DNA of 64,000 bases from assembly GCA_963737655.1 (NCBI GenBank), contig CAVTTN010000002.1, positions 6,624,001-6,688,000 of the forward strand, in the 5' to 3' direction. The stretch comes from an uncultured Planctomycetota bacterium. Lineage in GTDB: Bacteria; Planctomycetota; Planctomycetia; Isosphaerales; Isosphaeraceae. The translations under genes were made by a program, and so were the position numbers. Within the stretch, counting starts at the first letter, position 1; each line of letters begins with the position of its first letter. Of this stretch, positions 1-49,708 are shown piece after piece. Under the pieces are notes generated by a model. The model was given only the letters and a program-made list of their open reading frames with translations. It made no database searches and was not told the origin of the DNA.

Positions 1-183
1 ACGGCCGGTATCGCCTCGGGCTCGGCCGAGCCCCACAAGACCAAGGTGGCGACGGTCACGGCCGAGCAGGTCCAGAAGATCGCCGAGACCAAGTTCCAGG
101 ACCTCAACGCCCGGGACATGGAGCACGCCTGCCGGATCATCGCCGGGACCGCCCGGAGCATGGGCATCGACATCAAGGGGTGA
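1..183 (+). CDS. rplK: 50S ribosomal protein L11, 3' part (5' end outside window)
   Basis: Frame 1 reads [60 protein letters not shown], the L11 C-terminal signature; lies upstream of rplA. Confidence 0.97.
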
Positions 184-237
184 ACCGGATGGCTTGGACC
201 CTGATCTCTTGGATATCGCCCGCCACCGATCGGTGAC

Positions 238-309
238 GGGCGGCGAGCTCAGTGGTCCGAGCAGGCTCCTTATCAGGGCCGGGTGAGGGTTCGATTCCCT
301 CGCCGCCTA
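238..309 (+). tRNA. tRNA-Ile-like cloverleaf, anticodon TAT (UAU); atypical, possibly pseudo or tRNA-like
   Basis: Acceptor GGGCGGC/GCCGCCT, D arm GCTC-AGTGGTCC-GAGC, anticodon arm GGCTC-CTTATCA-GGGCC (TAT at 271-273), T arm GAGGG-TTCGATT-CCCTC, discriminator A, no encoded CCA. Non-canonical G8, C21, C37. Confidence 0.8.
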
Positions 310-407
310 CTTCGAAGCGATCATCTCGCGCCGGCGCGACCGCCCGCCGGAACTCTCGCGAGGATTCCTCACATCGGCGGCAGCCCCCAACGAAGGGAGC
401 GAACGGT

Positions 408-1085
408 TTGGCAGTCTATTCGAAGCGATTCCGGGCCCTGAAGGAGAAGGTCAAGCCCGACCCTCTCCCCCTGGCCGAGGCCGTCAAGCAGCTCAAGACC
501 TTCGGGACGACGAAGTTCAACCAGACCGTGGAGGTCTCGACGAACCTCGGGATCGACCCGAAGCAGAGCGATCAGAACGTCCGCGGCTCGGTGGCGCTGC
601 CCCACGGGATCGGCAAGGCGGTCCGGGTGGCGGTGTTCGCCCAGGGGGACAACGCCGAGAAGGCCCGGGCCGCCGGCGCGGACATCGTCGGCGGGGATGA
701 CCTGGCCCAGAAGATCAAGGGCGGGTTCATGGATTTCGACGTGGCCCTGGCCACGCCGGACATGATGGGCGTCGTCGGCCCCCTGGGCCGCGTCCTGGGT
801 CCCCGAGGCCTGATGCCCAGCCCCCGCTCGGGCACCGTGACCACCGACATCACCTCCGGCGTGAAGGAATTCAAGGCCGGCAAGATCGAGTTCCGGTCGG
901 ACAAGGGCGGCAACGTCGCGGCGCCGGTCGGCAAGATCAACTTCAGCGAGGAGCAACTGGTCGAGAACATCCAGACGTTCCTCAACCACCTCCGCTCGGT
1001 CAAGCCGACGGCCGCCAAGGGCACGTACATCCGATCGATCACCATCTCGGCCACCATGAGCCCGGGCATCCGGGTGCTGGCCTAA
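408..1085 (+). CDS. rplA: 50S ribosomal protein L1
   Basis: [20 protein letters not shown] and [10 protein letters not shown] motifs; probable TTG start at 408 after a GAAGGGAG SD-like site. Confidence 0.97.
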
Positions 1086-1094
1086 GGGAGGGCG

Positions 1095-1199
1095 GAGTGG
1101 GCGGTGGGCCGTGGGCAGTGGGCAGTTGAAGAGGATAGGGAGAGACCGGTCTTTGCTTTCGTCTTCAACTGCCCACTGCCCACGGCCCACCGCCCACTC
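1095..1199. repeat. Heptamer (GTGGGCA-type) inverted-repeat hairpin, perfect 38-bp stem
   Basis: 1095-1132 is the exact reverse complement of 1162-1199; 29-nt loop. Confidence 0.97.
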
Positions 1200-1205
1200 T
1201 CAACG

Positions 1206-1760
1206 ATGAGCAAATACGTCAAAGAATTGATGATGGATCAGTTCAAGGCCGAGCTCAACGGCTCGCGGTCGGTGCTGATCCTGGATTTCAAGGGGCTGGA
1301 CGCGGTCTCGGAGAATAAGCTCCGCCTGGACCTGCGCAAGAAGAAGATCCACATGAGGGCGGTGAAGAACACGTTGGCCCGGCGGGTCTTCGCCGACGCG
1401 GGCATCCACGGCCTGGACGCGGTCCTCAGCGGCCCGAGCGTGGCCGTCTGGGGCGGAGACGGCGTGGCCGAGCTGGCCAAGGAGCTGTTCGACCAGGTCA
1501 AGAAGCTGAAGAAGCCGGCGATCAAGGGCGGCGCGGTCGATGGCGTGGTGATCGGCCCGGCCCAGGTCGAGGACATCACCAAGCTGCCGAGCCGCGAGGC
1601 CCTGATCGGCCGGGTGGTCAGCCTGGCCCTGGCGCCGGCGGCCCGCGTGGTGTCCCTGGCCAACGCCCCGGCCTCCGGCCTGCTGGGCCAGTTGAAAACG
1701 CTGGCCGAGCCGAAGGACGGCGAAGGCGGCGAGGCGGCCCCGGCCGCCGAAGGCGCCTGA
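1206..1760 (+). CDS. rplJ: 50S ribosomal protein L10
   Basis: VKNTLARR and TKLPSREALIG motifs; position between rplA and rplL; ATG at 1206 (the upstream ORF extension is translated repeat). Confidence 0.96.
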   Translation: MSKYVKELMMDQFKAELNGSRSVLILDFKGLDAVSENKLRLDLRKKKIHMRAVKNTLARRVFADAGIHGLDAVLSGPSVAVWGGDGVAELAKELFDQVKKLKKPAIKGGAVDGVVIGPAQVEDITKLPSREALIGRVVSLALAPAARVVSLANAPASGLLGQLKTLAEPKDGEGGEAAPAAEGA

Positions 1761-20737: not shown

Positions 20738-21670
20738 ATGTCCGTAGCCAGTCCGGCGTGGGCGGAGCCCCGGGGGATGACCCTGGCGGACCTCGCGGCC
20801 CTGGTCGTGGGGTGCGCGGGGGGGATGGCCACGCTCAAGGTCGCGGGCTACTTCCAGATCGCCTCATTCCCGGCCTCGGCCCGGCCGTTCCTGATCCTCG
20901 TCCAGGCCGGGATGATCGCGGGGGTCGGCCTGACCGCGGTGGCCCTGGCCCGGCGGTGGCGGTACGGGGGCACGGCCCGCCCGACGGAGTGGATGGCGAT
21001 CCTGGCCGCGGATTTCCTCCTCCAACGCCTCGCCCCCACCTTCGGCCGGTACGTCGCGGCGTGGGCCTCGCTCTCGGTTTGGGATTACGAGCCGCTGGCC
21101 TGGCGGGTGGCGGGGATGGCGACCCTGGCCGCGATCGTCGCGGTGGTCCTGGCGGGGATCCTCCGCCGGTGGTCCCCGGGCGCCGTGACGACCCTCCTCC
21201 TGGCCGCGGCCCCGGCCGCCCTCCTCTGGGGGACCGCCCCGGCGGTGTACAACTTCCATGAATCGCTGTTCGGGCCCGTGGGTCGCTGGGTCGAGGGCCT
21301 CGCCGGGGCCCAGCGGAAGGGCCTGGCGTCCGACGTGACCATGGCCCTGGGGCGGCTCCCCCAGGGGATCGTCTACGGCCTGCCGACGGTCGCCTCGCTC
21401 CTGACGATCCTCCGGGGGCGGAGCCGGTCGTGGGCCTGGTCGGACTGGGCCTCGGCCGCCACGGGCCTGCTCGTCTGGTCGGCGTGGGTCGGCACCACCC
21501 ATTCCTGGGGCATCCATTCGACGAACGAAGCGATCGTCTTCGCCGTCTACCTGGCGGTCGTCGGCGGCGTGACGCTCCTGATCGTCCTGCGTCTCGGCCC
21601 GGTCTGGAACCGCCTGTTCCATCCGGGCCAACCTGAGAAACGAACGTCACCAGCCCCGACCGAGGACTGA
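20738..21670 (+). CDS. Hypothetical multi-TM membrane protein
   Basis: GAGGAGG SD, many hydrophobic segments, paralog at 18811. Confidence 0.82.
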   Translation: MSVASPAWAEPRGMTLADLAALVVGCAGGMATLKVAGYFQIASFPASARPFLILVQAGMIAGVGLTAVALARRWRYGGTARPTEWMAILAADFLLQRLAPTFGRYVAAWASLSVWDYEPLAWRVAGMATLAAIVAVVLAGILRRWSPGAVTTLLLAAAPAALLWGTAPAVYNFHESLFGPVGRWVEGLAGAQRKGLASDVTMALGRLPQGIVYGLPTVASLLTILRGRSRSWAWSDWASAATGLLVWSAWVGTTHSWGIHSTNEAIVFAVYLAVVGGVTLLIVLRLGPVWNRLFHPGQPEKRTSPAPTED

Positions 21671-27281: not shown

Positions 27282-27504
27282 CGTCTGGCCGTGGAAACGG
27301 GGACTGGCTCCGGGCGTACCCGCCCGGTGCCTGTCCCCCTTTCTGCGGCCAGACACGCGGGACGGGGCAGTGGGCAGTGGGCAGTGGGCAGTGGGCAGTG
27401 GGCAGTGGGCAGTGGGCAGTGGGCAGTGGGCAGTGGGCAGTGGGCAGTGGGCGGTGGGCAGCGGGCAGTGCCTGTCCCCCTTACCGCGGCCAGACACGCG
27501 GGAC
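27282..27504. repeat. Composite repeat: 15 tandem GGGCAGT heptamers between two 37-bp direct repeats
   Basis: Array at 27365-27469; direct repeats at 27327-27363 and 27468-27504 (35/37 identical); an imperfect inverted copy of the flank starts near 27282. Confidence 0.95.
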
Positions 27505-36864: not shown

Positions 36865-38739
36865 TCATTCCCCATCGGCGACCGCATTCATCGGCGCCTC
36901 GTCGGCCCGCAACGCCTCGATCTGATTCGAATACGCGGCGACCAGCTCCCGGCGGCTGAGGAGGCCGACGAGATGGCCGGGGTCGTCGGGATCGACCACG
37001 GGGATTTCCTCCAGGTTCAGGCCGGTCAAGCGACGGAGGGCGGTGTGGAGGTCGTCCCTCGGCGTGACGGTGACCACCGGCCGGGTCGCCAGGTCGTCGG
37101 CCAGGACGAGCGAGCCCAGATGCGACCCGAGCAGGGCCATTCGGAGGTCTCTCAGCGAAAAAATCCCGGTGAACCGATTGGCCGAATCGACCACCGGGAA
37201 CAGCGTCTCGGGCGAGTTCGCCACGATCCGCACGACCTGATCGAACGGCAGGGCCTCGGGCACCCGCTCGATCCCCTCGACCCGGATGCGGACGTCCTTG
37301 ACCTTGATCCTCTCCAAAACATCGACGACGAAATCTCCCTGATGCGCCGGGCTGTCGATCGGGCTGGGCACCTGTTCTTCGTACAGGGTCCAGCCGCGAG
37401 ACAGGGCGACGTTCAACCCGCAGACGAGCATCAACGGGACGAGCAGGCGGTAGTGGCCGGTCATCTCGCAGACCATCACGATCGACGCCAGAGGGGTCTT
37501 GGACACCCCGGCGAAGAACCCGCCCATGCCGACCAGGGCGAAGGCGGCCGGGTCGATCAGGTCGCCCCGGGGCAAGAATTCCCGGAAGAACTGGCCGGCC
37601 GCCCCGCCGAGCATCCCCCCGATGAAGACCGACGGCCCGAACACGCCTCCGCTCCCTCCGGAGCTGATCGTCAACCCGGTGGAGACGATCTTCATCAGCG
37701 CGAGCAGGGCGAGCATCCGGAAGCCCATCTGAGGGACGAACGGGCGGACCCCCGGCCCGAACGGCATGGCGCCCTCGCGGAAGAACTCCGAGGGCATGCC
37801 GATCGCCCCCCACTGGACCCATCCATAGCCGCCGGTCATCAATTCCGGGAGGGCCAGGGCCATCAACCCCAGGAGGAACCCGCCGACGGCCGGCTTGACG
37901 TGCCGGGGGATCGGCATCGGGTGGAAGAACCTGTCGCGGAGGCCGTAGAACACCTTCACATACAGCCAGCCCACCGCCGCGCACAGGAAGGCGAAGATCG
38001 TGAACAGGGGGATCTCGCGGAACCCGTGGAAGGCCAGGTCCGGGACGATGAAGATCGGCTGGGGCGTGATGAACAGGGCGAACGTCGAATAGGCGACGAT
38101 CGAGCTGGCCAGGCAGGGGAGCAGGGCGACGGATTCGGTGGCGGTCGTCGCGTACAGGACCTCCCCGGCGAACAACGCCCCGCCCAGGGGGGCGCGGAAG
38201 ATCGCGCCGATGCCCCCGGCGGCGCCGGAGAGCATGAGCAACCGCCGTTCGCCCGGGGTGAGCTTCAGGAGCCGGGCCAGGGCCGAGCCGAACCCGGCGC
38301 CGATCTGCGCGATCGGCCCTTCCTGGCCGGCCGATCCGCCGGAACCGATGGTGATGACCGACGCCACGGCCTTGATAATCGGCACCCGGCCGCGGATCTG
38401 CCCGCCCCCTCGGTGGAAGGCGCGGACCAGGGCGTCGGTGCCGTGCCCCTCGGCCTCGGGGGCGAGCGAGAAGACGATCAGGCCCGAGATCAGGCCGCCG
38501 ATGGTCGGCACGAGCAGGACGAGCCACCAGGGATGGGGCGAGGTGACCGGCCCGGCCGAACCCTCGCCCGTCGGCGGCATGTGGAAGCCCAGGAGGCCGC
38601 CCAGGAGCACCCGTTGGGTGGCATCCAGCGCGAGCAGGAAGGCGACGGCTCCGAGGCCGGCGACCATCCCGACGACCGGGCTGCACACCGTCGCCCGGCC
38701 CGTGCCTGGGGTGGCCCAGCGGGTGACCAGGCGGTTCAA
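36865..38739 (-). CDS. ClC family chloride channel/antiporter with C-terminal CBS pair
   Basis: EAEGHGTD, GGSAGQEGP, FRAPLGG and GGSGGVFGP motifs; CBS-type FPVVD and IPVVD. Confidence 0.94.
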   Translation of the reverse strand: MNRLVTRWATPGTGRATVCSPVVGMVAGLGAVAFLLALDATQRVLLGGLLGFHMPPTGEGSAGPVTSPHPWWLVLLVPTIGGLISGLIVFSLAPEAEGHGTDALVRAFHRGGGQIRGRVPIIKAVASVITIGSGGSAGQEGPIAQIGAGFGSALARLLKLTPGERRLLMLSGAAGGIGAIFRAPLGGALFAGEVLYATTATESVALLPCLASSIVAYSTFALFITPQPIFIVPDLAFHGFREIPLFTIFAFLCAAVGWLYVKVFYGLRDRFFHPMPIPRHVKPAVGGFLLGLMALALPELMTGGYGWVQWGAIGMPSEFFREGAMPFGPGVRPFVPQMGFRMLALLALMKIVSTGLTISSGGSGGVFGPSVFIGGMLGGAAGQFFREFLPRGDLIDPAAFALVGMGGFFAGVSKTPLASIVMVCEMTGHYRLLVPLMLVCGLNVALSRGWTLYEEQVPSPIDSPAHQGDFVVDVLERIKVKDVRIRVEGIERVPEALPFDQVVRIVANSPETLFPVVDSANRFTGIFSLRDLRMALLGSHLGSLVLADDLATRPVVTVTPRDDLHTALRRLTGLNLEEIPVVDPDDPGHLVGLLSRRELVAAYSNQIEALRADEAPMNAVADGE

Positions 38740-42512: not shown

Positions 42513-42640
42513 AGTGGGCAGTGGGCAGTGGGCAGTGGGCGGTGGTAAGAAGGGAGGAGGAGAGCGGAGCCGGCCGAGTCCCAGGTTTTCCTGGCTGCCC
42601 ACTGCCCACTGCCCACTGCCCACTGCCCACTGCCCACTGC
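42513..42640. repeat. Heptamer (GTGGGCA) inverted-repeat hairpin
   Basis: About four GTGGGC[AG] units at 42514-42545 facing six CTGCCCA units at 42595-42640. Confidence 0.95.
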
Positions 42641-49584: not shown

Positions 49585-49708
49585 GTGGGCAGTGGGCAGT
49601 GGGCCGTGGGCAGCGAGAAGACAGGGGATGACCGAAGAGGAAGAAGACGGGGCCGATCGCGACCGGCCGCATTCCTCAACTGCCCACTGCCCACTGCCCA
49701 CTGCCCAC
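49585..49708. repeat. Heptamer (GTGGGCA) inverted-repeat hairpin
   Basis: 49585-49613 versus 49680-49708, 28/29 complementary, 66-nt spacer. Confidence 0.95.

Follow-up and report, generated by a model that had tools for sequence, protein, structure and literature searches.

The tRNA gene between rplK and rplA

The 64,000-nucleotide stretch of DNA analysed here, hereafter the window, derives from a member of the Isosphaeraceae (genome G000; other G numbers denote relatives), whose assembly comprises 7.63 Mb in three contigs with a G+C content of 68.7% and is 87.7% complete as judged by marker genes. The window begins within a large translation cluster, in which four tRNA genes, tuf, rpmG, tRNA-Trp, secE, nusG, rplK, tRNA-Ile(UAU), rplA, rplJ, rplL and rpoB follow one another, with tuf intact upstream of the window. 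tRNA genes are familiar members of translation operons, where a tRNA cluster precedes tuf and tRNA-Trp precedes secE-nusG, and G000 shows this very layout upstream of the window. The tRNA-Ile(UAU) gene resembles these operon tRNAs in being co-oriented with its neighbours and, presumably, in being released by RNase P and RNase Z; the site between rplK and rplA, however, is an unusual one. The features of this region are:

1-183, forward strand: 3' end of rplK (ribosomal protein L11), an open-ended reading frame with a TGA stop codon at 181-183; the full 141-residue L11 continues upstream of the window
238-310, forward strand: tRNA-Ile(UAU) gene, identified by ARAGORN, Rfam, orthologues at the same site and covariation; G8 is window position 245 and C37 is window position 274
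333-399, forward strand: conserved rplA leader, with complementary GC-rich blocks at 333-350 and 375-388 around a variable hairpin and a Shine-Dalgarno-like GAAGGGAG at 392-399
408-1085, forward strand: rplA (ribosomal protein L1), identified by reading frame and translation, with a TTG start codon at 408
1095-1199, no strand assigned: long hairpin in the rplA-rplJ spacer, composed of GGGCAGT heptads and their complement, a perfect hairpin with spurious matches to miRNA models

The tRNA gene starts 54 nt behind the rplK stop codon and ends 97 nt ahead of the TTG start of rplA. The initial annotation had described a four-stem cloverleaf with the anticodon TAT between these two genes, and both programs agree with it: ARAGORN calls a tRNA-Ile with anticodon tat at window positions 238-310(+), and the Rfam model RF00005 matches end to end over 238-309 with 48.0 bits (E 1.7e-8; gathering score 29). 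This score is low for the genome, ranking 42nd among its 44 tRNA hits; the orthologue in relative G096 reaches 66.2 bits. The gene has the 7/4/5/5-bp stems of a canonical elongator tRNA, and its most stable predicted structure (minimum free energy -35 kcal/mol) is the four-arm cloverleaf, although this energy is unremarkable when compared with shuffled sequences (z = -1.72; 12 of 200 shuffles at least as stable). All identity elements and odd residues that had been listed for the gene can be read from the sequence, namely G1-U72, C4-G69, G8, U12-A23, C21, C29-G41 and A73, together with C37 and A38 from the anticodon loop CUUAUCA. U33, G18-G19 and a T loop of the GTTCGAnnC type are likewise present, in columns that are invariant or nearly so among the orthologues described below, and CCA is not encoded. 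Elsewhere in the window, ARAGORN also calls an 89-nt tRNA-Ala(ggc) at 21089-21177 and a 92-nt tRNA-Pro(cgg) at 37742-37833; as neither is among the genome's 44 Rfam tRNA hits, both are probably false positives in G+C-rich DNA.

The leader directly behind the tRNA is the consensus of 60 aligned spacers from the family and is kept with or without the tRNA. In it, GAAAGGAG follows the leader hairpin and is itself followed by the TTG start codon, which is kept in eight of nine orthologous loci; rplA itself was found in 114 of 121 family genomes with the 225-residue L1 protein as query. The leader matched no Rfam family at E <= 1. It may be a candidate autoregulatory operator for L1, in which case the operator would immediately precede rplA and not rplK. 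A scan of window positions 1-1300 detected neither a sigma-70-like promoter, for which the consensus may not suit this phylum, nor an intrinsic terminator, a result that hints at co-transcription.

Distribution and conservation in the Isosphaeraceae

A blastn search of 61 relatives with the 73-nt tRNA detected it over its full length, at 82-96% identity, in seven of them (G002, G003, G020, G006, G028, G036 and G035). ARAGORN calls every one of them tRNA-Ile(tat), each lies between rplK and rplA, and tblastn places rplK orthologues next to the tRNA in relatives. Of 121 family genomes, 13 contain a match to a sequence pattern that runs from the D arm through the anticodon loop, nine with a form that we term type A and four with another, type B; the type A gene of G096, newly found in this way, is again located between rplK and rplA. 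When further rplK-rplA spacers were taken from 60 family genomes, one of them (G071) proved to hold a degenerate type A copy with a mismatch in the D stem. In the other 59, among them the 233-nt spacer of the same-genus relative G001, ARAGORN found no tRNA, and a covariance model trained on the ten copies found no tRNA remnant (best non-training match 15.1 bits, E 0.077). The gene is thus present in 10 of the 69 Isosphaeraceae rplK-rplA spacers examined, those of G000 and nine other genomes. Among 400 other genomes sampled from the phylum, the pattern occurred in three, in none of them beside rplK or rplA and in one inside an array of 15 tRNAs.

The ten orthologues of the rplK-rplA tRNA covary. 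Standard pairs fill 98.6% of the 210 pair cells of the cloverleaf, pairs changed on both sides number 6 compared with 2.4 +/- 1.0 in shuffles, and sliding the partners against each other reduces pairing to 41-54%. Within the anticodon loop, C32, U33, U34, A35, U36 and A38 are invariant in all ten copies, and A37 is kept in nine. In comparisons of G000 with four relatives, identity amounts to 89-95% for the tRNA, as opposed to 67-76% for the upstream spacer and, for the downstream one, 71-80% with three of them and 0.25 with G003 and its 373-nt spacer. Taken together, the conserved pairing, the invariant loop and the higher conservation of the tRNA relative to its spacers point to selection on a working tRNA with a UAU anticodon. 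A chance cloverleaf can be rejected, as the same-site orthologues in nine other genomes maintain the structure through compensatory changes; with synteny and covariation in agreement, the feature is a genuine tRNA gene. As to the spacers themselves, two loci (L003 of G003 and L007 of G036) carry an insertion that places the rplA start about 370 nt behind the tRNA; at the seven others measured, this distance is 87-113 nt.

In a gene tree of rplK the carriers are scattered, and no fewer than four gains or losses are needed to accommodate its well-supported branches, although the tree, resting on 423 columns, is poorly resolved and the number of losses accordingly rough. A search for a recent donor paralogue within G000 yielded no candidate that could be upheld: the best matches, tRNAs of 74-76 nt, have no more than 51-54 aligned bases in common with the 73-nt tRNA.

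Type B constitutes a second, unrelated UAU lineage with a C1-G72 acceptor end. It was seen at L025 (G080), L030 (G008), L035 (G124) and L036 (G144), none of which is near rplK or rplA, and its existence implies more than one origin or arrival of UAU tRNAs in a family that has tilS. Several relatives moreover contain dense arrays with 12-30 tRNA genes per 2-5 kb (L012, L014, L017, L018, L039, L044, L051/L056 and L062, as well as contig C448 of G096). Some of these include Lys(ttt), Ile(tat) and odd low-scoring CAU tRNAs. They may represent mobile tRNA arrays; no such array was found in G000.

Probable AUA decoding by way of TilS

Considering the anticodon, it seemed conceivable that this tRNA reads AUA independently of TilS, as the initial annotation had offered as one of its options. 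A gene for TilS, however, is present in G000 at C2:5705853-5706407, where the model TIGR02432 scores 165.9 bits against a cut-off of 93.6. The corresponding reading frame encodes 519 residues and covers positions 1-189 of the 189 positions of the model (162.6 bits), which leaves the N-terminal catalytic domain whole; Pfam recognises only the PP-loop domain in it. The gene exceeds the curated cut-off in nine of ten genomes tested, which are G000, the carriers G002, G003, G006, G020, G028, G036 and G096, and the non-carrier G029. In the carrier G035, whose assembly is 85% complete, it was not detected.

The only uninterrupted CAU tRNA visible in G000 is of the elongator type, and the single-contig relative G029, with 45 tRNAs seen, has one initiator and one plain elongator-type CAU tRNA. 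A group I intron model matched once each in G000 (48.9 bits at a gathering score of 50, E 6e-11), G029 (68.9 bits) and G096 (56.5 bits), and in all three genomes the intron is flanked by exons that together form a perfectly paired tRNA, the 5' exon ending in the anticodon CAU:

G000:C2:3573862-3574192 (L191; corresponding loci L189 in G029 and L190 in G096): intron-split tRNA(CAU), with a group I intron of about 260-300 nt right after the CAU

This gene is missed by ARAGORN and by the Rfam tRNA model. ARAGORN with intron search returned 104 candidates, none with anticodon cat, ttt or tat, and thus did not recover it; at a very low threshold the program produced some 25,000 false calls, which were discarded. 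A pattern for the 5' exon matched 4 of 121 genomes, a count that gives no distribution, being too strict on D-loop length and missing the known carriers G029 and G096; G001, G021 and G136 have the pattern. The layout resembles that of the Azoarcus pre-tRNA-Ile intron, as far as this is described in the consulted parts of PMC13168695, PMC2241849 and PMC3984707. The intron-split tRNA(CAU) is probably either tRNA-Ile2 or elongator tRNA-Met. The family would accordingly possess an initiator and two elongator-type CAU tRNAs, which fits the set of Met and Ile2, and a likely candidate for the tRNA-Ile2(CAU) that had been asked after is to be found among the two elongator-type CAU tRNAs of G000. The presence of tilS, the number of CAU species and the Azoarcus intron precedent together suggest a complete canonical AUA route. 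No initiator tRNA gene was detected in the G000 assembly by Infernal, by a regex scan or by blastn with the initiators of relatives, which indicates that the assembly is incomplete for tRNA genes and has gaps despite its small number of contigs.

The isoleucyl-tRNA synthetase (IleRS) points in the same direction. In G000, an R-C-W stretch aligns to R888-C889-W890 of the S. aureus enzyme, corresponding to the W905 site of E. coli, and the motif KCERCW is found in G000 as well as in all five other UAU carriers checked. According to the consulted sections of Taniguchi et al. 2013 (PMC3575796), the Trp at position 890 of the S. aureus enzyme (905 in E. coli) is a conserved residue among species with tilS, and IleRS of Mycoplasma mobile has an Arg in its place, which confers recognition of UAU. 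The M. mobile tRNA-Ile2(UAU) is similar to the gene described here in its anticodon and in its presumed reading of AUA as Ile; that organism, however, is described in the same sections as having Arg865 in IleRS and as being without tilS and tRNA-Ile(CAU), whereas G000 has tilS and the Trp. As to the demand for such a tRNA, AUA is the rarest codon among those tallied in G000, with 335 ATA among 1,552,145 codons of 3,133 long, high-GC3 reading frames (0.22 per 1000, or about one per 4,600 codons, and 0.5% of Ile codons).

That the tRNA could serve G000 as the sole, TilS-independent reader of AUA, in the manner of M. mobile, would agree with its UAU anticodon, with the E. coli-type identity elements C4-G69, U12-A23, C29-G41, A38 and A73, and with the single uninterrupted CAU tRNA of the assembly. 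We nevertheless regard this as highly improbable, since tilS with its full catalytic domain and an intron-split second elongator-type tRNA(CAU) are both present, the wobble-contact residue of IleRS is Trp rather than Arg or Lys, the gene is missing from most relatives, and C37 rules out t6A in the G000 copy. The proposal of a TilS-independent decoder is therefore unsupported. The opposite suggestion, that intact tilS and tRNA-Ile2(CAU) elsewhere together with an absence of conservation in relatives would reduce the gene to a neutral pseudo-tRNA, was borne out in its first half, with tilS and a likely tRNA-Ile2(CAU) at hand, but not in its second, as the gene is conserved in relatives and hence no neutral pseudo-tRNA of chance origin.

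UAU tRNAs that exist side by side with TilS are not without precedent. Table S1 of PMC3575796 lists TAT tRNAs together with tilS in Rhodopirellula baltica SH1 (two TAT, four CAT tRNAs) and Planctomyces limnophilus DSM 3776 (one TAT, three CAT tRNAs), and the same combination in Cyanothece PCC 7424 and Ferrimonas balearica; tRNADB-CE, in the part of PMC4013482 consulted, records TAT tRNAs in 19 bacterial species. The rarity that had been ascribed to UAU tRNA-Ile consequently needs tempering, with two planctomycetes already in that table. Like these two members of its phylum, which have several CAT tRNAs, G000 combines a TAT tRNA with tilS, and like Cyanothece and Ferrimonas it has kept the IleRS Trp, as reported for the latter two in the available text of PMC3575796. 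The discussion of that paper, to the extent available, proposes redundant decoding of AUA in such species and a poor fit of IleRS where the Trp is kept. What distinguishes the gene of G000 from those in the table is its occurrence in 10 of 69 spacers of the family, its G8 and C37 and, possibly, its position inside the rplK-rplA spacer. A UAU tRNA-Ile in a lysidine-reliant bacterium is also known from the tilS-bypass suppressor of Bacillus subtilis, in which G34 of tRNA-Ile1 is changed to U (excerpts of PMC3575796 and PMC3919564); in contrast to this laboratory suppressor of a tilS defect, the tRNA of G000 has no evident recent donor. In a limited search of the open-access literature on this topic, no paper on a tRNA in the rplK-rplA spacer or on the Isosphaeraceae was found. 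New here are the rplK-rplA location and the pattern of repeated loss; the UAU tRNA beside tilS was already known.

A separate observation concerns lysine. tRNA-Lys(UUU) was not found in G000 or in the complete relative G029 by ARAGORN and Infernal, nor, in G000, by an additional regex scan. AAA accounts for 9.7% of the Lys codons of G000 (3.1 per 1000), yet only tRNA-Lys(CUU) is present.

Two private changes and their interpretation

U8 and a purine at position 37 are near-universal in tRNAs, and U8 makes a tertiary contact in the core. Where a canonical elongator tRNA has U8, the G000 copy has G (window 245), and where it has a purine at 37, the copy has C (window 274). Both residues are private to G000, the nine other copies all having U8 and A37. 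Thus, of the residues originally singled out as odd, G8 and C37 are unusual indeed; C21, which G000 has in common with four relatives, and G1-U72, which it has in common with six, are not oddities of this copy. Within the genome, U8 and a purine at 37 are found in every one of the 42 other solid tRNAs (in four of them with the ARAGORN start moved by one base), the only further exception being a doubtful Leu(aag) match of 39.5 bits. The E. coli-type isoleucine identity set is represented in G000 by C4-G69, U12-A23, C29-G41, A38 and A73 and is short of A37, which all nine relatives have kept. In E. coli, t6A on A37 is important for isoleucylation by IleRS, according to the parts of PMC3575796 consulted.

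Located at near-universal positions and private to G000, the two changes lead us to read the copy as recently disabled. From the sequences compared, it is most likely freshly disabled and decaying, with an assembly error as a possible alternative, so that among the options of the initial annotation the decaying decoder provides the best fit. Relaxed selection cannot be demonstrated from only two private changes; neither of them lies in the acceptor or T arm, and the sequence still adopts the cloverleaf.

As G8 and C37 rest on a single assembly, 87.7% complete and without an initiator tRNA gene, the tRNA could also be a normal, working accessory tRNA-Ile(UAU), in which base-calling or consensus errors simulate the changes. 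The nine copies with U8 and A37 and the gaps of the assembly are in accord with this, and public reads do not contradict it: in all four runs that were mapped, read depth was zero over window positions 198-323, comprising the whole tRNA at 238-310, the best run matching 0.19 of the sampled words, and just upstream, at 184-197, a single one of the four gave a depth of 0.3. An apparent read joint skipping 183-330 in two runs was dismissed, having only 20 letters on one side and stemming from other organisms. On the other hand, two substitutions in 73 bases would amount to a very high local error rate, and none of the 42 other solid tRNAs deviates at position 8 or 37, their Rfam scores lying in a normal range of 52-76 bits. 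A motif-wide, methylation-linked systematic miscall is unlikely, too, because the palindromic hexamers that U8 and A37 would restore are not depleted in the assembly, GCTAGC occurring 126 times (134 expected) and TTATAA 82 times (79 expected). On balance, we consider sequencing or assembly errors unlikely, at odds of perhaps one in five.

We favour instead, with a probability of roughly 60%, that the gene of G000 is a freshly disabled spare tRNA-Ile(UAU), descended from a dispensable accessory lineage with repeated losses in the family. This reading fits the repeated loss in relatives, including the same-genus G001. The accessory lineage sits inside the nusG-rplK-rplA-rplJ cluster of some Isosphaeraceae, where the tRNA is probably co-transcribed with rplK and rplA and would be cut out of the transcript by RNase P and RNase Z. 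In relatives, the canonical copy might act as a second, dispensable reader of AUA beside TilS acting on tRNA(CAU). IleRS would probably charge the UAU tRNA poorly, so that the benefit would be small and the gene easily lost. In the G000 copy, the changes from U8 to G and from A37 to C would then have brought about the loss of function.

The third option of the initial annotation, a tRNA-shaped cutting site, assigns a different role to the same structure. Here, cleavage by RNase P and RNase Z would uncouple L11 from L1, L1 would regulate itself via the downstream leader, and the copy with G8 and C37 would have lost decoding and kept processing. The distribution of the changes accords with such a role, in that all 12 pairs of the acceptor and T stems and the T loop are intact in G000 and the changes hit the tertiary core and the anticodon loop; so do the absence of promoter-like or terminator-like sites between the genes, the conserved leader with its Shine-Dalgarno sequence directly after the tRNA, and the location itself, a highly transcribed ribosomal-protein operon being an odd home for a reader of the rarest codon. 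However, 59 of the 60 further family genomes run the same operon and leader without the tRNA, and the conservation extends to the anticodon loop, in which six of seven positions are invariant and the seventh is an A in the nine other copies, all of it needless for cutting. A processing element would be expected to be conserved independently of its anticodon, and the ten copies show the opposite. For these reasons we hold a cutting site to be improbable. A related and equally speculative scenario follows from the 'transition state' of Taniguchi et al., in which lysidine-CAU and UAU readers exist side by side: having lost U8 and A37 and remaining an intact substrate for RNase P and RNase Z, the tRNA of G000 might be turning into pure operon punctuation, by which L11 is split from an L1 message with its own operator. 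We give this little credence as well.

If the gene is indeed a freshly disabled spare, the rplK-rplA locus adds a syntenic, dated series to the short list of organisms that combine a UAU tRNA-Ile with TilS, consisting of ten orthologues at one locus with many losses and holding one degenerate copy (G071) and one freshly damaged copy (G000). From such a series one could learn how frequently a second reader of AUA is tolerated in the presence of an unadapted IleRS, and why it is usually discarded. For annotation, we suggest flagging the gene of G000 as a possible pseudo-tRNA and attributing AUA decoding in this genome to TilS and a CAU tRNA that standard finders overlook owing to its group I intron.

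The long GGGCAGT hairpin behind rplA belongs to a genome-wide repeat unrelated to the tRNA, whose 13-mers occur 92-123 times on contig C2. Further hairpins of this kind are found in the window at about 27365-27447, 42516-42635 and 49587-49706, and another copy lies just upstream of rplK (G000:C2:6623640-6623745); these repeats occupy intergenic spacers of the ribosomal-protein cluster.
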